The notes beneath the pieces are model-generated. The model searched no databases. It was not told the origin of the DNA and worked only from the letters and a program-made list of their open reading frames with translations. From contig JBGASG010000003.1 of assembly GCA_044229845.1 (NCBI GenBank), forward strand, positions 96,001 through 160,000: a stretch of DNA of 64,000 nucleotides, in the 5' to 3' direction. The stretch is from Candidatus Obscuribacteraceae bacterium (lineage in GTDB: Bacteria > Cyanobacteriota > Vampirovibrionia > Obscuribacterales > Obscuribacteraceae). This document shows positions 15,799 through 28,534 of the stretch, piece by piece (positions within the stretch are counted from its first letter, which is position 1; the number at the start of each line of letters is the position of its first letter). Position numbers and translations under genes: made by a program.

Positions 15799-17349
15799 TC
15801 ATTTGTTTGAAGTGGATTTGTGCAGAAAACGTGCAGCGAGCTCGTACAGATCAGCGCGCAAATCCTGCACCTGACTGTAGCGTAATTCAAGATCAAGCGC
15901 TGTAGCATGCGCCACCACATTATCGATGTCACCGGATAGTGCATCGTTGAGTTTTTTGGGGTGAGCGGTGGTGATCGGCTCCGGTTCTTCGCCGGTGATC
16001 AGATAGAACAGCGAGGCACCAAGCGCGTAGATGTCGCTCTGGGGACAAGCCTTGCCTCTGAACTGCTCCGGAGGGATGTACGAGTGCTTGCCCACTACAG
16101 TGCGGGTTGCGGTCGAATGCAACTGCTGCGCCACGTTGAAATCGATCAATACCAGTTCACCGGTCGGAGAAAGAATCAAGTTCTCGGGAGTAAAGTCGCG
16201 ATGCACCACTGGTGGTGACTGCATGTGCAAATGTTCCAACATGTCGCACATCTGAATGCCCAGTTCAACGACTCGCTCTTCACTAAACTTGCCGCTCGCT
16301 TGCACCAGTTCTTTGAGAGAGTTTCCCGGCACATGTTGGAGCACCAGATACGCACGCTGATCGTCGACGAAGAGGTCGACCAGGCGCACTATCTGAGGAT
16401 GCTGCAGTTTCCTCAAGAGCTCCGCTTCGCGGTCGATGTTGTCCAGAGCTTTCTTCACTACCGAAAGTCCAGCGTAGTAAGGCAGACAAAACTCCTTCAG
16501 CACGACATCCATTTCAGGACTGTCGATCGCAAATGAACCGGCTCTAGCTCTAGCCAGATATGCGGTTCCCTGCCCACCGGAACCGATACGATCGACGATC
16601 TCGTAGCGGTCATTTCCGATCGAGGCACCAGCGGTGAGAACATCTTCCCGAATGCGTTTACGCCCGCCGGAAAGGACCTCCAGCCAGAGTGTCGTGTAGT
16701 TGTCCACGCGGATCGGATTGAGCGTATCGTGCAGTGCCCAGTCGGCTCGGTCGGCAGGTACGTATTCCTTGAGCACGGTGTGCAGGCGCTTGCGATGCTC
16801 GCCACTGGCAATGCCTTCCAGGTGCAGGTAGAACTCCTTAGATCTGCCACCGTTCCAGTATTTGAAAAAGGTGCGCTTGATCTTCGGGTTCAAGGTCTGG
16901 TCATCGATCTGAAAGCGCAGCTGCGTTTCGGTGGTGGCGAAGTTTCTGCGCCGAACTACTGAGAGGCTTTCGATCTTGTTCCAGGGCAGGTAGAGAGTGC
17001 TTTTGTCACCGAACCACCTTATCCAGTAAAGCCGCAATCCCTTCTCGCTGAACCCCAGATGGGTTGGCTGAATGGCGCTGTAAATCGGCACGGCAGCTGC
17101 CAGCAAACAAGCCAGCATCGGCATGAAGAGAAACCACACCGGCGACCCGGTAACCAGCGCGATGAAAATAGCCAGCACAGACAGACAGCCTTGAAAGAAA
17201 GTGTCGTGCCGCAACACGACCTGCAACCGCCTTTGCAGAGCCTTTTCCGGCTTATATGGAATTACGATTTCATCGAAACGCTGGCCGTCATAGAGGCGAT
17301 ACGCAACAAAGTATTTGTATGCTAGTGAGGTTTCCAGCGGAGCCTTCAT
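15799..17349 (-). CDS. Membrane-anchored Hanks-type Ser/Thr protein kinase
   Basis: GSGGQG, VLKE, HRDFTPEN, IDFN, YIPPEQ and SDIYALG motifs. Confidence 0.93.
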   Translation of the reverse strand: MKAPLETSLAYKYFVAYRLYDGQRFDEIVIPYKPEKALQRRLQVVLRHDTFFQGCLSVLAIFIALVTGSPVWFLFMPMLACLLAAAVPIYSAIQPTHLGFSEKGLRLYWIRWFGDKSTLYLPWNKIESLSVVRRRNFATTETQLRFQIDDQTLNPKIKRTFFKYWNGGRSKEFYLHLEGIASGEHRKRLHTVLKEYVPADRADWALHDTLNPIRVDNYTTLWLEVLSGGRKRIREDVLTAGASIGNDRYEIVDRIGSGGQGTAYLARARAGSFAIDSPEMDVVLKEFCLPYYAGLSVVKKALDNIDREAELLRKLQHPQIVRLVDLFVDDQRAYLVLQHVPGNSLKELVQASGKFSEERVVELGIQMCDMLEHLHMQSPPVVHRDFTPENLILSPTGELVLIDFNVAQQLHSTATRTVVGKHSYIPPEQFRGKACPQSDIYALGASLFYLITGEEPEPITTAHPKKLNDALSGDIDNVVAHATALDLELRYSQVQDLRADLYELAARFLHKSTSNK

Positions 17350-18974
17350 GCGTGTTCTTTCTGCCTCTGCGGCGTCTTGATCGTCTGTCCTTCGTCCGTC
17401 TCCGCATGGGGGAGCTTTTCTATAGTTTCGATCAAAGAGTCGGCGCTGGAAATACGATCGCTAACTTCTGTGCGCGTCAAGGAAGCTATAAAGTCATCGA
17501 GCCAGCCAGGACACTTGCCCGACCAAACCTTTGGATGAGACTCGGACAACGGCTCTGGTTCATCGCCGGTCAGCAGGAAATAGAGCGTTCCGCCCAGACC
17601 ATAAATGTCGCTGGCAGGTCCGGCTTTGCCACGAAACTGTTCTGGCGCAATGTAGCATTGCTTGCCGATCAGGGTTCCGGTTGCCGTACCTACAAACTCG
17701 TTCGCAGCACCGAAGTCAATCAGAAACAGCTTCCCGTCTTCGCGCAAGACGAGGTTGTCGGGGCTGATATCCCGGTGAATAATCGGTGGCGACTGATCGT
17801 GGAGATACTTCAAAATTTTGGCAATCTCTAAGGCCCAGTGCAATACTTGTTCCTGGCTTTGGGGACCGTTCATCGCGACAAGCTGACGCAGACTCTGTCC
17901 GCGAATGTATTCCAGAACCAAATAGTCACGCCCACCTTCTACGAAGTGGTCGGACACCCGAGCTATCCTCGGATGCTCGAGGCGGAGAAGCAACCGAGCT
18001 TCACGCTCGAACATCTCCTTCGCTTTCTCCTTCGCGGTATCATCAGCGGTGACTGGCACCACAGCTTCCTTCAAAACCACGAGGCGCTTATCCGGCATTT
18101 CCGCCAGATAAATTGCTGAGAGCCCGCCAGCCGCCAGTTGCGACAGGACCTTAAACCGTCCATTTTGCAGGGACCGACCTTTGTCGAGCGGCATGAAAGT
18201 AGTGGCAGTGAAGTGCGCCTGCAGGTCCTCTTCCCACAAGGTCGTAAATGACGAATGCTGCTGTTTCTTCGGACCACTGAACAGTTTGCGCTTCAGATCA
18301 ATTAACTCAGGAGCCAGCACGGCTGTGCTTCCCCAGTGCTTGGCGGCTTTGAAGAAATTCTCCAGATCGGACATAGCCAGGTCTTGCAGATTGATGCGAG
18401 CGGTACCGCCACTGGTGAAATAGAAAACCATCTGGCGATCTTCCAGTTCGCGAGTGACGTCCTTGCCACCAATCCTGTGCTTGCCCGAGGTGAACGAAAG
18501 CTGTTCATCAGTCAATCCAACTGCACCGATGTCGTTCCAGGATCGCTGACGACGAAACAATAGCGGCACCCACATGTGGGCAGGAAAGGTCAAACCGGTC
18601 TGCCTCAGACGTATCCGTTTCTCTCTCATGAGTGCAGCCAGCCAACCGAAAGCTCCCGCGGCAACCAGAAAGCATCCCAGGGAGAAACCATGCTGCAGGA
18701 GAAGTTCTTCGTTGGTGACATACGAACGGGTGGCCGCCGGATCGTGTGTAGTGATCCGCCGCTTGGTGAAGATTGAGCCGACATCAAATGGTCTGCCCTG
18801 CTCCTGTTCTGATGAGGCGCTCAAACTGAGCGGGCGGGCGCCTGACAGATGTCCGCCGATGTCATAAGCAAGCATTCCCGAGTAGACAAGACAGCCCAAA
18901 CCAAAGGCCAGCAACCCATTCACCAGCCAACCCGGAGCCCGTTTGTACTGAAGGGAAAACTCCTGTTGTCTCAC
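17346..18974 (-). CDS. Membrane-anchored Hanks-type Ser/Thr protein kinase
   Basis: VLKE, HRDISPDN, IDFG, YIAPEQ and SDIYGLG motifs; stop overlaps the next start. Confidence 0.93.
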   Translation of the reverse strand: MRQQEFSLQYKRAPGWLVNGLLAFGLGCLVYSGMLAYDIGGHLSGARPLSLSASSEQEQGRPFDVGSIFTKRRITTHDPAATRSYVTNEELLLQHGFSLGCFLVAAGAFGWLAALMREKRIRLRQTGLTFPAHMWVPLLFRRQRSWNDIGAVGLTDEQLSFTSGKHRIGGKDVTRELEDRQMVFYFTSGGTARINLQDLAMSDLENFFKAAKHWGSTAVLAPELIDLKRKLFSGPKKQQHSSFTTLWEEDLQAHFTATTFMPLDKGRSLQNGRFKVLSQLAAGGLSAIYLAEMPDKRLVVLKEAVVPVTADDTAKEKAKEMFEREARLLLRLEHPRIARVSDHFVEGGRDYLVLEYIRGQSLRQLVAMNGPQSQEQVLHWALEIAKILKYLHDQSPPIIHRDISPDNLVLREDGKLFLIDFGAANEFVGTATGTLIGKQCYIAPEQFRGKAGPASDIYGLGGTLYFLLTGDEPEPLSESHPKVWSGKCPGWLDDFIASLTRTEVSDRISSADSLIETIEKLPHAETDEGQTIKTPQRQKEHA

Positions 18975-21631: not shown

Positions 21632-24600
21632 TTAGAATCGGAAGAGTCGGCCGAGCAGACGTCGCAATAGCGGGCGACGCAGACGTGGCAGGAAGTCCTC
21701 TTCGTCATCATCTCCATCCGGACAGGGTCCCGGTCCAGGGCACGGTCCATCCGTCCAATCGTCATCGTCGTCATCCGGACCGCACGGTCCCCAGGGACTA
21801 TATGGACCATCGGGACCAGGTTGATTGGGTCCCCACGGTGAGTCGTTGCCGCCCCAGTTGTTGCGCCGCACACGTCCACCGCCATTTTCTTTGACCCACT
21901 GACGAATGTCGCGAATGCGGCTGATGACGCGATCGTTTCCTTCGCCGTGTTGATCGTCTTGAATGATCACCCAGCCGTCACCGTCTCGCTTCAGGTGGCG
22001 AGAGCGCATGTGCCCCGGAGCGTAAGTGATATAGGCACCATTGAGCAATAAGGTGTCCCGCTCGCTGCCGTTGACCAGGTGAGAGCTGTCGGACATGATG
22101 TCGCCCGTGATCTTGTAGATGATGTTGCGGCATCCGGAAGAGCCGCCATAGTTACCGCCGTTCGGCTGCCGGCGGTCGCCGATTGCCGAGCAGGTTTCGT
22201 CGAGAATCTTGCCGATCGGGCTGCGCATGCCGTTGTTGAGCGCACTGTTGATGGTCCAACGCTGCTCTTCATATCCCATGGAAAGCATGCGTCGGCTGAA
22301 CTGATAGGTCTGCGGTCCGCCGCCGCGCTCGCCACCGTTGAGAGTTCGGAAGGAACCCCAGGAAGCTTCTTTGACAAGACGCGCCAGCGAATCAGGATGG
22401 TTCATCATGGCGGAAATGTGACCAGCCTGCATCCAACAGGTGCCGTTTGCTCCCTGATCCATGGTGCTGGGATCCTGGGCGTGGAACAAGAAGTTCTCCA
22501 CCAGTTTCACGCGCATGGCTTGATCGTAGTAGGCGCCGGGTTTGTCCGAGACAACAAGAGCAGCCAGATGATCGTAGGTCTGGGAGACAGCGGCTTGCGT
22601 CGCTTCTTCCACCTTGGACTGATCGCGCCCGCCCAGCACCTGCAACATGGCGCGGTCGGCCATGCGCTTTTCGAACTCTGTCATCATTTTTTCCAGTCGC
22701 TGCCGCCGACCTTCGTCCATCTTGTCGGCGACTACTTCCATGAGTCGCGAACGAGCGTCGTCGACCGATTCGGAGAGCCAGCCGTCGGCACCATCGATGG
22801 TGACACCCATCTTGGCGGTCTTCAGCTTGGCGTCGCCGGGAATCTTGTATTCGTATTCGCCGTCGCGACATATGTTGAGATTCTCCCGCACGCGCGGCTT
22901 GCTGCTGCCGGGTGCCGGTGCCGCCAGGAACTGATTGGTCAGCGTACCGTCGGCATTCGCTTGCCTGGTCCAGGCTTCTTTCACTTCACCGGTCGGCTTG
23001 CGATCGACGATTTGGGCCAGTTCTTGCTTGTCGCCGACCGTGACGTATTTGAACTCGCGGCTGGAGCCGTTCGCCGCCCTGGCTAAGAGGGTGTTACCAC
23101 CCTTATCCAGTTCCAGGTGAACGAAATTGGCTCGCTCGATAACAGCACCATTTGTAGTGGCATAACTGAAATCGCCTTCGGAATTGATGTGCAGATTGCT
23201 GGCGTCTTTTTGCACCGCGGCATCGAAGACGACCTTCTCACCCGACTTGCCGTCGGTGTCGACAACCCGCACCACCTGACCGTTCTCTCGTATGAAGGAA
23301 CGATGGTTGTTGCCTTTGGTGATGCCGGTGACTTCGCCGTCCTTGAAGTCGACGCGCACGTTGTCCTTTCCGATCACGGCCAGGGTGCCGTCGGTGCCCT
23401 GCAGATACTTCTTGTCACCGCCCGTGGTGAAACTCAGTTCACCCCTCTCGGTAACGGCAAGATTCAGCCGGTCGCCAGGATAGTTCTTGGAGTCGGAAGA
23501 CCAGCGTCCACCGGCGTTCGTAAAGGTCACCGTCTCGCCGGTATGGTTGTTGAACATGCGGATTTGCGAATCGGTGATCTGATATGTGTCGCCACCCCTG
23601 GTGCGCACAAACGTCAACTTGCCGGCTTCGTCGTAAGTGGCCCGCGAGCCGTCGTCTGATTCTTTGAAGCGCACACGACCACGCGAGTCATAGGCGGTCC
23701 GGTTGCCTTTCTCGTCGATGTCGTCTCGCGTTTCTGTGCCGTCTTGCCAGATTGTCGACCACTTACCGTCGCGCGAACGACCTTGTGAATCGGTATACCG
23801 GCGCGAATAGACACCATTGTCCGAGAGCATCGCCTGCCCGTACCAGCTCTGAGTGCGATAGCCTTCCGGCGTTTTCACGTCCCAGTGCAGCGACTTGGCG
23901 TCGGCGCGTTCATTTATATAAGTAGTGCCGCGCTTTTTGTCCGAGACCGTAATCGACTTGATGTCTTTGCTGTCGCCGAAATACGAGAAGTCGCGAACTT
24001 GATCCAAGCCGGGCCATTCGATGCGCGTAATCCGATTGTGATCGTCGAAGGTGAATTTAGCTTTGCCTTGCCCTTGCTGGCATACACTGCCGTCACCGCC
24101 GATGCGGAAGTTGTCACCCTCCGGCGTGTCGTAAGAAACAACACCGGAAGCATCCAGCTTGAAGTTCTTGCGATGCAGATTGGGGTTTTGTATGCAAACC
24201 CAGTCACCGCCAGCCTGCTGTTTCCACTCGATGCTCTGACCGGTGGCAGATGTTTCTATAATGGTATTAGCGTCGGTTTGAGAGACAAACGATCGATCGC
24301 GGCGACTGATGGTGCCGACTCCGCCGCGGTCGTTCAATGTGACGATGGAGCCGTCGGCATTCTCTTTCTCTTGAGTAACGGTGCCGTCAGCTCTCTCAAG
24401 CTGCCAGAGTCCGGGAGTTCCCAGTTCATATCGAAAGTCGCCGGTCACCCTATCGAAACGAACGCCGCCGTTGCCGGGTAAGGCAAATTCCATACCCTGG
24501 AATTTGGCGAACCACTTTCCATCACGATTCACCAGTGTCGACTTGCCTTCGGCGCTGGTGGTGACGATTTCGAGGGGCTGACCTTTCTCGTCGGCTCGGG

Positions 24601-24874
24601 TGATTTCGCGAGTCTTCTCGCGGCCGGGATAGGTGATTTTTGAAATCAGATTCTGGTCGTCGCGCTCAGTCTTCCTGCCATCATCGATGGTGACTTTCGG
24701 AAGCTCTCGCTCCAGCTGCACCTTGTCTGATGCGGCTAGTTGGGCGACGCGTTCGTTGATCGCACGCAAATAGCTGTCGACATCGATGCTGGCGTCGGCG
24801 ACGGCTGACGTTTCGAAAAGGGGCTCTGGACCAACGAATGTTTGGTCTGGACGGGCAGATATTGGGGTGCTCAT
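21632..24874 (-). CDS. Large beta-repeat (YD/RHS-like) protein with C-terminal papain/calpain-like Cys-peptidase motif
   Basis: Repeated xYD.xGR / DGS / DGT units; DQGANGTCW followed by APGH and IIQDD. Confidence 0.7.
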   Translation of the reverse strand: MSTPISARPDQTFVGPEPLFETSAVADASIDVDSYLRAINERVAQLAASDKVQLERELPKVTIDDGRKTERDDQNLISKITYPGREKTREITRADEKGQPLEIVTTSAEGKSTLVNRDGKWFAKFQGMEFALPGNGGVRFDRVTGDFRYELGTPGLWQLERADGTVTQEKENADGSIVTLNDRGGVGTISRRDRSFVSQTDANTIIETSATGQSIEWKQQAGGDWVCIQNPNLHRKNFKLDASGVVSYDTPEGDNFRIGGDGSVCQQGQGKAKFTFDDHNRITRIEWPGLDQVRDFSYFGDSKDIKSITVSDKKRGTTYINERADAKSLHWDVKTPEGYRTQSWYGQAMLSDNGVYSRRYTDSQGRSRDGKWSTIWQDGTETRDDIDEKGNRTAYDSRGRVRFKESDDGSRATYDEAGKLTFVRTRGGDTYQITDSQIRMFNNHTGETVTFTNAGGRWSSDSKNYPGDRLNLAVTERGELSFTTGGDKKYLQGTDGTLAVIGKDNVRVDFKDGEVTGITKGNNHRSFIRENGQVVRVVDTDGKSGEKVVFDAAVQKDASNLHINSEGDFSYATTNGAVIERANFVHLELDKGGNTLLARAANGSSREFKYVTVGDKQELAQIVDRKPTGEVKEAWTRQANADGTLTNQFLAAPAPGSSKPRVRENLNICRDGEYEYKIPGDAKLKTAKMGVTIDGADGWLSESVDDARSRLMEVVADKMDEGRRQRLEKMMTEFEKRMADRAMLQVLGGRDQSKVEEATQAAVSQTYDHLAALVVSDKPGAYYDQAMRVKLVENFLFHAQDPSTMDQGANGTCWMQAGHISAMMNHPDSLARLVKEASWGSFRTLNGGERGGGPQTYQFSRRMLSMGYEEQRWTINSALNNGMRSPIGKILDETCSAIGDRRQPNGGNYGGSSGCRNIIYKITGDIMSDSSHLVNGSERDTLLLNGAYITYAPGHMRSRHLKRDGDGWVIIQDDQHGEGNDRVISRIRDIRQWVKENGGGRVRRNNWGGNDSPWGPNQPGPDGPYSPWGPCGPDDDDDDWTDGPCPGPGPCPDGDDDEEDFLPRLRRPLLRRLLGRLFRF

Positions 24875-24954
24875 TGTGATTCTTGCCTGCAACTTCGGAG
24901 CAGAAAGAATCAGCGAATGCGACGAATTTCTTAGAACTTAACCCTGATGGATGG

Positions 24955-24985
24955 AGTCTAGCCTCTCCGTCGTGGAATTTTTGTG
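24955..24985 (-). promoter_or_regulatory. CAC-N8-CAC box plus TAGACT -10-like element upstream of the large beta-repeat gene
   Basis: Minus strand CAC aaaaattc CAC-11nt-TAGACT, similar to the three sRNA promoters. Confidence 0.45.
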
Positions 24986-25079
24986 TCACGAAACGTGCAC
25001 GCATGGGGAAAACCGCATGCGACAACCGCCTACAAAATCGACCTGAACGAAACCAAAATGGAAAACCCAAAGGGCTGCC

Positions 25080-25168
25080 AAAAAGGGAGAAAGCCAACCA
25101 TTACTGGTTGACTCCCCTTGTTTCCGGTCCCGCAACCGGTTACAAACTTGTTTCGCTGCCAAGCGAAT
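25080..25168 (-). ncRNA. Putative sRNA copy 1 (unknown family)
   Basis: ATTCGC-loop-GCGAA hairpin; TAACCGGTTGCGGGACCGG core; terminator hairpin plus T5; upstream TACACT -10. Confidence 0.7.
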
Positions 25169-25308
25169 ATCAATAGTGTACTGCCCGAGAGTGCATTTTT
25201 TGTGAAATGCGTAACTCTGTGTAGCTATGAGCTTTCTCACCTTCCTGCATTCTGAAGGGGGAAAACACGCATGAAATCGCCGCTCACCGCGATTTCTAAA
25301 AAGCCTCC

Positions 25309-25391
25309 AAAAAGAAAGAGAGCCACAACTGGCTCTACTCCCTTAATGCCGGTCCCGCAACCGGTTATAAAATCGTTTCGCGAGTGCGAAT
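25309..25391 (-). ncRNA. Putative sRNA copy 2
   Basis: Same architecture; upstream TAAGAT -10; terminator with G-U pairs plus T5. Confidence 0.7.
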
Positions 25392-25475
25392 ATGAGTATC
25401 TTAGGCACAACTGGTGAAAAATTTGTGACACGTAAGGGTCCACCCAAAGCCCCGATAGAGGCGATTTTTCAGCAT

Positions 25476-25565
25476 AAAAGGAAAGGGACCAACCTACGAA
25501 TAGTTGGTCCCTTTCCATTTTTCCGGTCCCGCAACCGGTTACAAAGGTTTTTCGCTGGAGCGAAT
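25476..25565 (-). ncRNA. Putative sRNA copy 3
   Basis: Same architecture; upstream TACTAT -10; terminator with UUCG loop plus T4. Confidence 0.7.
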
Positions 25566-25619
25566 GTACTGATAGTATTGCCACTTCGTGAAAAAAACGT
25601 GGCAAAGGACCCCTTTTTT

Positions 25620-26291
25620 ATGGCCAAAACAATCGAAGACGTACGGGCTCTGATTTTCGATATGGACGGCGTTTTAGTCGACTCAGAACCCCTGCATCTC
25701 CTGGCGTACCAGGAACTGTTTTCGGTGCACTCAATTGAATACACCGAGACGCACAACCAGGAATTTTTGGGCTGCAAGGACATCGCAATGGCACACATCC
25801 TGGTGGAGCGCTGGAGCTTGCCGTTTACGCCGGAGCAGCTGGTCCAGAATAAAGAAACCATTCTCGCTCGCCTGCTCAAGTCGGATGCTCAGATTCGACC
25901 GGGGGTCAAAAAGCTTTTGGAAGAAGCGCGAGCTCTGCAGATTCCATGCGCGGTCGCATCCTCCGCAACGCTGCCAACCATCCAGCTGGTTGTTGATGAG
26001 CTCGGTATTCGCCAGTATTTCCATCATCTGTCCTCCGGAGACGAAGTTGAGCACGGTAAACCGGCGCCGGATGTTTTTCTGCTGGCAGCAAAACGGCTCG
26101 GGGTGGGGCCTGAGCACTGCCTGGTCATCGAGGACACCGCCAACGGCATCAAGGCGGCTAAAGCGGCGGGAATGTTCTGCATCGCCATTCCATGCGACGC
26201 CACCCGCCACCAGGATCACTCACAGGCAGATATGAACCTCACCAGCCTGGAGGAAGTGTCTCTCAAGAGCTTGATTGCGTGCGCTCTCTAG
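25620..26291 (+). CDS. HAD-superfamily phosphatase (beta-phosphoglucomutase-like)
   Basis: IFDMDGVLVDSE, AVASS, GKPAPDVF and VIEDT..G motifs. Confidence 0.95.
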   Translation: MAKTIEDVRALIFDMDGVLVDSEPLHLLAYQELFSVHSIEYTETHNQEFLGCKDIAMAHILVERWSLPFTPEQLVQNKETILARLLKSDAQIRPGVKKLLEEARALQIPCAVASSATLPTIQLVVDELGIRQYFHHLSSGDEVEHGKPAPDVFLLAAKRLGVGPEHCLVIEDTANGIKAAKAAGMFCIAIPCDATRHQDHSQADMNLTSLEEVSLKSLIACAL

Positions 26292-26314
26292 GCGCTGACT
26301 GATCTCTGGTCTTT

Positions 26315-28534
26315 CTAGTTGGGCTGTTGCTCGAGTTCCGGCGCGCCGGGAACGGCAATGCCCATCTTAACCATGGATACTTTTATAGATTGCCAGTCTC
26401 CGCCATTGGAATTGGCGAACAGCTGGTTAAGCGCGTCATTGGTGATTGGACCACCGAGTTGCTTGGAGATGTCTTGAACGACTGTAGCGATCTGGGCTTG
26501 ACCCAGTTGGGCGTTAACCAGTCCTTGAGCTGCTTCCACTTCGGCGATTGCCGAGAAGGCTCCAGCCGCAATCAAAGCACTCTTGATGGCCGACAGTTCC
26601 GAGTAAGCGCCGAGCAGTTCGCTGACGTGACCGAGACTGATTTCCGCCGGCGCCAAGCCGCCCACGCGTCCGGCAATACCGGTGGCGCTGGCCGCCACTG
26701 CGCTTGCATGCGCCGCGACCGGCAGATCATCGCCGTCGGTGCCGGTGGCGAGCTTGAACAAGCCGCTATCGAGTTTGTCGCCGTTCAGGCCAAAGAGGTC
26801 GCCGGTCAATCCGTCAATCTTGAAGCCATCGGCGAAGTCAACGACCATGTCCCGGATATTTATCACCGTATCGTTGATGAACTTGGTGAAGTCGTTGAAG
26901 AAGGTTGTACCGTTCGAAGTTGTTTCGCTGTTGTTCTGAGTATCGATGGTGAACGGCTGTGACTCACCAGAACGCGGATCCATGTGATACACGTACGGAT
27001 TTGAGTCATCCGACTCGAATTGCGGCGTGTCCATCGATCCCGGTTTGCCGATGACGACCTTGGCGGTGTTGCTGTCGACATCGCTTTGCCCGGTTATGGC
27101 TACGCTGGGAGCCAGGTCGGGCAATGTGATCGGCTTGCCGTTCGGATCCAGCTTGCATGCGCCCGGCTGTTCGGGATCGTCGTCGGTTTGATCTTGCTCG
27201 CCGCAAGCACCGGTTTGCACCGAGCTCTTGCCGTCTTCGGTGGCGGTAACAGTGGTGAACGTGCCGCGACCTTGTGAGTTTTTCACAGTGGTCTGGTTGG
27301 AATCGGCGGCGATCACTACGCCTTCCTTGGTAGAGACGACGCCGTTGGGATTGACTGTCGCGCCGGCCATTTGCAGAGTGCCATCAGGCTTGACGGTGAC
27401 ACCGTTCGACGCATCAGCGGCGATGGCATTATTGTCTTTATCGAAGACTTGATAGCTGCCGTCCGGTCTGATCAAGACGCGCTCACCGGTCTTCAGGTGA
27501 ATTTCTTTGCGTCCATCAGCGTGGGCGAAAATTTCGGTTTGATCTTGTGTGGTGACTTTGATGACGCCGTGATCGCGTACATCAATGTCCCCGGCCGGTG
27601 GTTGATCGGCAGCGGCGGTTGGCTTGTTGGCTGGCTGCTCCTCGCCGTCTCCCGGCTTGTCGTCGCCCGGTTTGTCATCACCGTCACGGTGGCGGCGATG
27701 GCGGTGCTGGTGGATGGCGATGCCGCGATCCAGTCGGTTCAGAACTTCTTTGTCAGTGATCTCTTGTTTGCGACCATCATGCCACTCTATCTCAATCTTC
27801 TGAATATGGCCTTCTGCGTCTTTGACGATCCTGGCTTTGTCACCATCTGCAGTGGTGAACATATCGTCGCCTTTGGCGTTCTTTTCAAAATGCCACTGGT
27901 GACCGGGCAGTCCACCGACTTCCCACTGGTGTCCGCCTTTTCCATCGTTGGCGTAACCCTTGGTGCCGTTGTGCGACTCCATCCATCCAGGTCCGGATGT
28001 GAACACAGTGCCATCGGCGTCGGTGTGAGTAACCACGCCGTCTTTTACGGTTGCAGAGCTGCCGTCTTTACCGGCATAAACACGTTCTACAGCATTGAGA
28101 TTAGTGGCAGTTTGCTGGTCGCCCTGGTCGGTTGGAGCCATGTTGTACAGGGCACGAATCTCGTTTTCGCTCTTGTCCGGCAGAAGTGAAACTGCTTCAG
28201 CGAAGCCAAAATGCGAAATTGCATCGACTGCAGCCATGGTGTTTTTCACCCAGCCGGTGGCAGTCGACCACAAACTTTCGCTCGCCAGTCCATGTTGGGC
28301 TGCATCTTTGTCGGTCGTGCTGAAGTAAGCCGCCGCTGCCTCAACTGCCCACGTCGAAGCATTACCAATAGACTTAACCCAGGAATCTTCTTCCGCTGTG
28401 TTGTCCGGATGACCAGCATCCTCTTTCGGATCCTTCGCAGCCGGATCGTCCTTATGCTGACCGTCGGCGCCATCCTGGTTGTTGGCGGCGTCGTCTTGCT
28501 TATCAGGTTTAGTGGTCGGCGCGTCAGTGACCAT
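26315..28534 (-). CDS. Large acidic hypothetical protein with DG-turn beta repeats
   Basis: 739-aa ORF; many DGT/DGS/DGK turns; no clear signal peptide. Confidence 0.8.
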   Translation of the reverse strand: MVTDAPTTKPDKQDDAANNQDGADGQHKDDPAAKDPKEDAGHPDNTAEEDSWVKSIGNASTWAVEAAAAYFSTTDKDAAQHGLASESLWSTATGWVKNTMAAVDAISHFGFAEAVSLLPDKSENEIRALYNMAPTDQGDQQTATNLNAVERVYAGKDGSSATVKDGVVTHTDADGTVFTSGPGWMESHNGTKGYANDGKGGHQWEVGGLPGHQWHFEKNAKGDDMFTTADGDKARIVKDAEGHIQKIEIEWHDGRKQEITDKEVLNRLDRGIAIHQHRHRRHRDGDDKPGDDKPGDGEEQPANKPTAAADQPPAGDIDVRDHGVIKVTTQDQTEIFAHADGRKEIHLKTGERVLIRPDGSYQVFDKDNNAIAADASNGVTVKPDGTLQMAGATVNPNGVVSTKEGVVIAADSNQTTVKNSQGRGTFTTVTATEDGKSSVQTGACGEQDQTDDDPEQPGACKLDPNGKPITLPDLAPSVAITGQSDVDSNTAKVVIGKPGSMDTPQFESDDSNPYVYHMDPRSGESQPFTIDTQNNSETTSNGTTFFNDFTKFINDTVINIRDMVVDFADGFKIDGLTGDLFGLNGDKLDSGLFKLATGTDGDDLPVAAHASAVAASATGIAGRVGGLAPAEISLGHVSELLGAYSELSAIKSALIAAGAFSAIAEVEAAQGLVNAQLGQAQIATVVQDISKQLGGPITNDALNQLFANSNGGDWQSIKVSMVKMGIAVPGAPELEQQPN

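Follow-up and report, generated by a model that had tools for sequence, protein, structure and literature searches.

Tandem copies of a conserved, apparently undescribed small-RNA-like gene sharing a direct-repeat promoter box in Obscuribacterales

Three tandem units on the minus strand of a 64,000-nt stretch of a Candidatus Obscuribacteraceae genome (hereafter the window) appear, from sequence comparison, to be copies of one conserved, apparently undescribed small-RNA-like gene. Our leading reading of their function, which is tentative (probability of about 0.42), is that they represent dosage-amplified sibling sRNAs under a response regulator, which would titrate an RNA-binding protein through an invariant core hairpin.

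The 19-nt core motif is present in three exact copies in the window (minus strand; 25124–25142, 25349–25367, and 25523–25541). None of 100 window shuffles contained three matches to this 19-mer with 3 mismatches allowed, and no further copy with ≤2 mismatches was found in the 5.16-Mb, 88%-complete genome that is the source of the window (G000). Unit 1 (25476–25565, minus strand, 90 nt) comprises a 5′ hairpin, an 11-nt linker, the core hairpin (25523–25539), and a terminator; unit 2 (25309–25391, 83 nt, core at 25349–25365) and unit 3 (25080–25168, 89 nt, core at 25124–25140) lie on the same strand, and every unit folds into a 5′ hairpin, a core hairpin, and a terminator. These lengths run from the predicted +1 to the U run. 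Each unit is preceded by a predicted minus-strand promoter (25572–25604, 25398–25430, and 25175–25207 for units 1, 2, and 3, respectively); that of unit 1 consists of YCACR occurring twice as a direct repeat with an 11-nt period, a 9-nt spacer, and a −10 element, and box and spacing are as in unit 1 for the other two. A previous sequence-only reading had proposed three tandem units of 83–90 nt with an invariant 19-nt core, independently transcribed and each with a terminator; the former proposal is borne out by exact matches, shuffles, and folds, and the latter is in line with the predicted promoters and terminators. The DNA between the units, which had been described as diverged, is not simply so, given the conserved promoter before each unit. 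Unit 3 is nearest to the single-copy form found in other genera and retains a UUUGU/ACAA extension of the core stem. A small peptide is an unlikely product, as the 5′ part varies in length without regard to frame and no start is conserved.

Fold z-scores on the minus strand (−6.0, −3.9, and −3.2) were nearly equaled by those on the plus strand (−4.3 to −4.5); because the plus strand folds nearly as well, the strand call rests on U tails, G-U pairs, and promoters. In a terminator scan, stems with U tails were found on the minus strand only. Of the terminator features previously said to work only on the minus strand, the G-U pairs hold, and the UUCG loop is confined to unit 1.

Homologues gathered by pattern and HAD-gene searches yielded an alignment of 20 units, which is the basis of the covariance model R1; anatomy was assessed on 18 HAD-adjacent units, omitting the three near-identical copies of genome G001 and a 3′-UTR form. 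A 17-nt core is identical in 19 of the 20 aligned units and is flanked by variable sequence. The single change in the core, in G075, converts a U-A pair to U-G, and no compensatory change was found in the core stem. The conserved loop is 4–6 nt long (UGCGGG), and the core hairpin has a pairing probability of >0.9 in 16 of 18 full-length folds; being closed in nearly all folds, it therefore leaves little open seed. The predicted +1 is an A in 16/18 units, and the 5′ hairpin starts at +2, with variable length and sequence, 83/90 cells paired (21–40 in slid controls), and pair exchanges of the types U-A/C-G and C-G/A-U. The linker from the 5′ hairpin to the core is 11 nt long and A/U-rich, and in 11/18 units it carries the run GAAACAAGG, which is missing in units 1 and 2; the base 3′ of the core is a purine in 17/18 units. 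In the terminator, 6 of 11 pairs present two-sided changes, a figure that kinship among the sequences can inflate. With covarying 5′ hairpin and terminator around an invariant core, the outer hairpins are therefore kept as structure and the core as sequence. Selection on RNA structure, as initially proposed for the units, is thus shown for the two outer hairpins and not for the core stem, with its zero compensatory changes. The distance from core to 5′ hairpin is fixed at 11 nt and the distance from core to −10 element ranges from 30 to 63 nt; a core spaced to an RNA hairpin and not to the promoter argues for a role at the RNA level, as the sequence-only reading had supposed in preferring an RNA to a DNA operator.

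Transcription of the units is weakly supported. Eleven RNA runs contain a small share of the region, and RNA-library contigs cover 25095–25373, including most of unit 3, in three of the four runs examined (three studies); these contigs run through the terminator of unit 2 and end close to that of unit 3. They are assembled contigs of depth 3–6 from runs chosen for holding the region, in which DNA is a possible source and transcript ends and strand are invisible. None of the four runs gave an RNA contig for unit 1, which is uninformative for an RNA so short. Contigs crossing a terminator are compatible with read-through of the kind described for PrrH in the available part of PMC4211561.

All 18 units of the anatomy set present YCACR twice with an 11-nt period, followed by exactly 9 nt and then TANNNT, a pattern with 35 matches genome-wide. 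A weight matrix built from these 18 unit promoters and scanned over G000 found 53 sites at ≥14 bits, compared to 12 in the control (one shuffled genome), and 18 compared to 0 at 20 bits; three of the latter 18 are the RNA promoters, and 43 of the 53 sites are intergenic. Among the genes 3′ of a box, 14 of 34 encode proteins of ≥600 aa, compared to 12% genome-wide (own gene calls). Sixteen of 20 downstream proteins scanned belong to no Pfam family, the rest being an OmpR-type regulator and LysM, RHS, and FHA proteins. The box marks about 40 further promoters, enriched for very long proteins, and it is also present in genera without the RNA. OmpR/PhoB-type activators typically use direct repeats of this period located just 5′ of a −10 element, and G000 encodes 26 OmpR-type candidates, suggesting that the RNA units are likely under response-regulator control (candidate OmpR/PhoB-type). 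The half-site of the box also has what we take to be a resemblance to a DnaA box.

In G000, this putative regulon (with sites at, for example, C13:199415, C18:29497, C19:119468, and C15:177040) includes an OmpR-type regulator gene, which lies approximately 400 nt 3′ of a triple box and may thus be autoregulated, as well as a 64-aa ORF and a site from which transcription would proceed antisense to a neighbouring gene. The same direct-repeat promoter precedes an unrelated, multi-copy small-RNA-like gene of approximately 75 nt in two genera lacking the RNA studied here (L338 and L354 in G077; L357 and L361 in G024). This gene folds as one long hairpin with a U run at its end; it had no Rfam match (L338 and L357) and no homologue in G000. 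Near-identical boxed promoters followed by a short hairpin were also observed in G047 (L333) and G005 (L336), where they are divergent from Fe-S assembly-like genes (named by eye) and lie 5′ of toxin-antitoxin-like small genes.

A covariance-model search of relatives with R1, a check suggested along with the original observation, placed the RNA, with strong matches (63–112 bits), in 16 of 104 family genomes and 6 of 37 genera, most units being those of the training set. G000 and G001 each carry three copies, G075 and G080 carry two, and the remaining 12 RNA-bearing genomes have a single copy; named carriers are all Obscuribacterales. Weak R1 matches in G060, G062, and at a second G013 site were rejected, as the core is missing. 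Outside the family, 2 of 120 class genomes (G157 and G162) gave weak R1 matches only (26–31 bits), and 140 other genomes sampled from the phylum gave none. A GTDB-wide pattern scan returned 114 stretches; full-length R1 matches were present in 10 of the 80 examined, with the other 70 scoring <25 bits, and these 10 loci are titled Obscuribacterales, Obscuribacteraceae, Obscuribacter, or Melainabacteria. Sequence scans of class, phylum, and GTDB therefore gave no convincing hit outside the family. Phage and plasmid collections contained no match to the RNA, and none of 22 exact 16-mer matches in IMG/VR scored above the bare core. The metagenome scan found three contigs only; because this single scan used a strict pattern, environmental breadth is under-sampled. 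The best Rfam 15 match in window positions 24000–27000 had an E-value of 0.45, far below the gathering threshold, and 11 homologous or related loci gave nothing at E ≤ 1. No small regulatory RNA of Obscuribacterales or Melainabacteria appeared in the portions of the literature searched, where supplementary motif tables of RNA screens could hold one.

In 15 of the 16 RNA-bearing genomes, the RNA and one and the same HAD gene point away from each other, and one genome has a different neighbour. In the window, this gene (25620–26291, plus strand) encodes a HAD hydrolase of the beta-phosphoglucomutase family (TIGR02009, above cut-off). Seventeen of the best 30 HAD loci examined lack the RNA, and no boxed small gene was found next to these 17; in a tree of the HAD proteins, the two RNA-bearing groups do not resolve at the base. 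On the other side of the array, a minus-strand gene (21632–24892) encodes a 1086-aa protein that belongs to no Pfam or NCBIfam family; its nearest Atlas cluster (Melainabacteria with RHS repeats, score of 0.90) is a lead only. This gene is preceded by a direct-repeat box of its own (24956–24988, minus strand, 10-nt spacer to the −10 element) that would place it in the same regulon. A homologue of the 1086-aa protein is located 3′ of the RNA in 12 of 14 other genomes examined and is missing there in two, and many genomes have a separate boxed promoter in front of this gene. The suggestion that the RNA is a specific partner of the HAD enzyme or of the large protein thus finds no support, considering the 17 RNA-free HAD loci and the genome with another neighbour in the former case, and the two genomes without the homologue and its own boxed promoter in the latter.

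The unit 1 box begins 16 nt from the HAD start codon, on the opposite strand (window positions 25572–25620). With the box so near, an overlap with the HAD promoter is probable, and activation of the RNA may repress the latter. The window also contains two tandem membrane-linked Ser/Thr-kinase-like genes (15799–18974, minus strand; kinase motifs judged by eye), and in G075 and G088 an N-terminus similar to these genes is found directly 3′ of the RNA.

As related copies, each with a predicted promoter and terminator, these units resemble in their layout the sibling sRNAs under two-component control, which include LhrC1-5 of Listeria (regulated by LisRK), the csRNAs of Streptococcus (CiaRH), the tandem OmrA/B, and PrrF1/2, as far as covered in the accessible parts of PMC4132741 and PMC4211561. 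Like LhrC and the csRNAs, the units are near-identical copies, some in tandem, with their own promoters sharing an element, and with a hairpin, a conserved middle, and a terminator; LhrC also acts without Hfq, a further likeness according to the same partial sources. Unlike the present closed, G-rich hairpin, LhrC is described there as using open, C-rich UCCC motifs against ribosome-binding sites. Rfam gave no match that would indicate sequence kinship to known sibling sRNAs, and no mRNA target was found.

The units also resemble the cyanobacterial Yfr2 family, to which their linkers had been loosely compared, in belonging to the same phylum, in their length (approximately 80–95 nt), in occurring as several copies, and in the GAAACAAGG run of the linkers, which is similar to the Yfr2 loop; these comparisons draw on the available portions of PMC2662882, PMC1242208, and PMC6778093, with the loop sequence taken from primers in a paper. 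In those accounts, Yfr2 has an unpaired, conserved 5′ end (8–13 nt) that pairs with Yfr1, a conserved 12-nt loop of the GGAAACA type carried by a long stem that is bulged at −4, scattered loci, and a presence across photosynthetic cyanobacteria, whereas here a variable 5′ hairpin is paired in 83/90 cells, the loop is 4–6 nt with the GAAACA run in the linker, and the locus is syntenic, with 0/140 matches in other genomes of the phylum. All three features tested (5′ end, loop, and phylum spread) thus speak against Yfr2 membership. Together with the Rfam result, this supports the original view of an undescribed sibling small-RNA family.

T-box antiterminators pair with tRNA, and CsrB and RsmX/Y/Z are protein-titrating RNAs. 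The units are like the latter in their proposed action, i.e., copies under a response regulator that would titrate a protein via hairpin loops, and unlike them in having one invariant hairpin with a single CGGGA loop instead of repeated ANGGA motifs, and in that CsrA was not found. Other RNAs that pair with tRNA include the bipartite primer-binding sites of Ty1 and Ty3 for initiator tRNA (PMC5371799, in part) and the tRNA-spacer sponge 3′ETS-leuZ (PMC13501541, in part). According to the former source, Ty3 pairs with the acceptor stem and other arms of initiator tRNA, aided by a zinc-finger chaperone; the present core could pair with the acceptor end and D-loop. Unlike Ty3, T-box leaders, and 3′ETS-leuZ, it would be part of a free small RNA, neither leader nor tRNA spacer. 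A primer-binding site of a tRNA-primed retroelement was rejected, as the terminal A of the tRNA faces a C and no reverse transcriptase is linked (none is found beside the RNA in the window; three are encoded on other G000 contigs).

In our leading reading, an OmpR/PhoB-type activator would bind the direct repeat and induce the RNAs along with the approximately 40 other promoters, and each unit would be transcribed from its own predicted promoter into an 83–90 nt RNA. The 5′ hairpin at +2 may shield the 5′ end and display the core 11 nt downstream, where the closed GC-rich hairpin would be read by sequence, i.e., on both strands and in the loop; such reading would explain why compensatory change is not tolerated. 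The RNA would then be a decoy whose invariant central hairpin titrates an RNA-binding protein, and copies may have been gained from one to two to three, giving the higher dose that titration requires. A decoy for a fixed partner would agree with the invariant closed hairpin, the fixed spacing, the tandem gain of copies, and the lack of a conserved mRNA target. Neither CsrA (PF02599) nor Hfq was found in the 88%-complete G000; three RRM proteins are present, with nothing tying them to the RNA, and RNase E is present. The core motif and its k-mers showed no enrichment in predicted 5′ regions that would suggest a mimic. A match to initiator tRNA accounts for the invariance of the core just as well as a protein partner, and a mixed case is possible, in which the RNA is a decoy for a protein that reads initiator tRNA, the 5′ arm of the core being tRNA D-loop sequence and the core loop the 5′ strand of that tRNA.

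That the core itself captures initiator tRNA is a doubtful alternative; here, the RNA would titrate the tRNA, its precursor, or fragments and, with the regulon active, dampen initiation. The last bases of the tRNA before its terminal A would be paired by nine bases of the core (GGUUGCGGG), and the D-loop by the next six (ACCGGA/G); the C1-A72 mismatch leaves the tail open, and from there the core would displace the acceptor stem. When unit 3 is co-folded with the G079 initiator tRNA, the minimum-energy dimer has this form (9 bp with the 3′ end as far as C75, and 6 bp in the D-loop) and involves 14 of the 17 bases of the core and the purine after it; the 9-bp helix recurs in 14 of 20 dimers (own reading), and the full two-site form in six. 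By contiguous pairs, the initiator is the best of 67 tRNAs (15, compared to 12 for the next), and 15 pairs were reached by 2 of 1500 control hairpins (0.13%) when anchored at the 3′ end and by 0.7–1.1% anywhere, with 1.7–2.7% of control hairpins giving a 9-bp 3′-end run. The D-loop CCGGU is present in all 14 RNA-bearing genomes in which the tRNA was located, the purine after the core in 17/18 units fits D-loop pairing, in the sole core variant (G075) the hairpin is preserved and the helix with the tRNA becomes longer, and one metagenomic copy (L069) repeats the exact 9-mer 5′ of the core. The tRNA 3′ end is matched in 13 of 16 RNA-bearing genomes, with a search pattern that itself favours this sequence. 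Against these points, the match emerged post hoc, mRNAs, 16S rRNA, and a riboswitch having been considered as partners before; the net gain is just −1.4 to −7.8 kcal/mol with tRNA tertiary structure ignored, and four other tRNAs are better by net energy. The pairing bases are buried in stems on both partners with no open toehold, the terminal A of the tRNA is mismatched, and the D-loop match follows partly from hairpin symmetry and the common GGU; the same D-loop occurs in 35 of 74 genomes without the RNA (own count), and neither partner varies. Unrelated 78-nt stretches also give 8–12 nt matches to some tRNA or to 16S rRNA, and the initiator tRNA of G000 itself is cut by a contig end (its first 51 nt are identical to those of G079). 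The recurrence of the core motif in tRNA, 16S rRNA, and a riboswitch-like leader is a warning in this regard. The fuller proposal of a chromosomal, signal-induced anti-tRNA small RNA, with two-site capture, a global decrease in initiation, and tandem copies matching tRNA abundance, is unlikely.

Sibling sRNAs under two-component control most commonly act by base pairing, according to the available text of PMC4211561 and PMC4132741, and the RNA might regulate a single mRNA or a few of them independently of Hfq, or might soak up a C-rich small RNA in the way that Yfr2 does with Yfr1, the G-rich loop starting a kissing contact that unzips one arm; we regard this, too, as doubtful. In genera g13 and g20, the end of a CxxC small-protein gene forms a stem whose C-rich loop has at least 8 bases pairable with the core (control fraction of 0.025–0.085 in six loops), and in G076 and three metagenomic contigs the core itself sits in the 3′ UTR of this gene family, where linker, core, and terminator follow right after the stop codon of the CxxC gene (106 aa) without a boxed promoter. 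RNWUU is the RNase E consensus, and a motif of this kind is present in 15 of 18 linkers. However, the C-rich loop is missing in the CxxC orthologue of G000, the Yfr1 motif was not found, and seven RNA-bearing genomes contain no 11-nt perfect loop-centred complement besides the RNA gene. Duplexes with start regions in G000 are no better than those of 25 shuffled cores, and among 956 gene pairs of G000 and G079 (own gene calls, covering 1.86 of 3.3 Mb of this one relative) none ranked in the top 2% in both genomes, compared to at least one in 14 of 20 shuffles, and no 7-mer seed was shared. The strongest-looking target, a 16-bp site at uvrA, is not conserved in any of five relatives, and a 13-nt complement before a gene on contig C8 was rejected, its 11-nt form being missing from the seven RNA-bearing genomes. 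These partial tests, which gave no conserved target, weaken the earlier idea of seed pairing to mRNAs. Pairing of ten loop-centred bases with 16S rRNA, or with a cobalamin riboswitch carrying the same motif, is highly improbable: a 10-nt perfect complement lies at approximately position 1044 of the G000 16S rRNA (0.8% of control hairpins reach 10 nt) and a riboswitch-like leader in G079, presumably a cobalamin riboswitch, carries the motif, yet the 16S duplex energy is ordinary (equaled by 53% of shuffles), the site presumably falls in structured rRNA, and no cobalamin riboswitch was found in G000. A role of the core at the DNA level, as an operator or roadblock, or of the units in cis, as leaders or attenuators for the large gene 3′ of them, is very improbable. 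A core that begins within an 8-bp palindrome and does not covary, the large-protein homologue 3′ of the RNA in 12/14 genomes, and RNA-library contigs crossing the unit 2 terminator would agree with such a role; the variable distance of the core to the −10 element next to its fixed distance to the hairpin, the absence of the core elsewhere in G000, a covarying terminator at the end of every unit with no obvious alternative structure, and the separate boxed promoter of the downstream gene in many genomes do not. Readings other than a protein partner, initiator tRNA, and mRNA or sRNA pairing are together improbable.

The CxxC family (C7:8491–8760 in G000, i.e., L112; orthologues L102–L131, L069, and L070) encodes basic proteins of approximately 105–130 aa with a C-x3-H...C-x2-C pattern and is present in 61 of 104 genomes, often as several paralogues; the small protein could not be assigned with Pfam, NCBIfam, or Atlas. 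Upstream of close orthologues lies a direct repeat of another kind (TGCCAA-type, 11-nt period). At the g13 and g20 loci (L103, L106, L107, L109–L111, L114, and L115), its 3′ UTR carries a conserved stem with a 16–20 nt C-rich loop followed by a terminator, possibly a 3′-UTR-derived RNA or a regulatory site; the g20 loop contains an anti-Shine-Dalgarno-like run. Regarding initiator tRNA genes, position 1 is T or A instead of C in genera g21 (14/14 matched genomes) and g22 (2/2 matched); provided that the 3′ side is the same as elsewhere, U1 and A72 would form a pair, which is unusual for a bacterial initiator tRNA.

Judged by its sequence, the conserved sibling small-RNA family with its own regulon is real, and its mechanism is a candidate only. 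With a defined box and a regulon of approximately 40 promoters enriched for very long proteins that mostly belong to no assigned family, it may provide a first handle on gene control in Obscuribacterales, an uncultured sister group of the cyanobacteria. The invariant closed hairpin points to an unchanging partner. If this partner is initiator tRNA, the RNA would represent a mode of translation control without a match in the accessible parts of the literature searched, including a 2026 review; if it is a protein, as in our leading reading, it would reveal a new post-transcriptional regulator.
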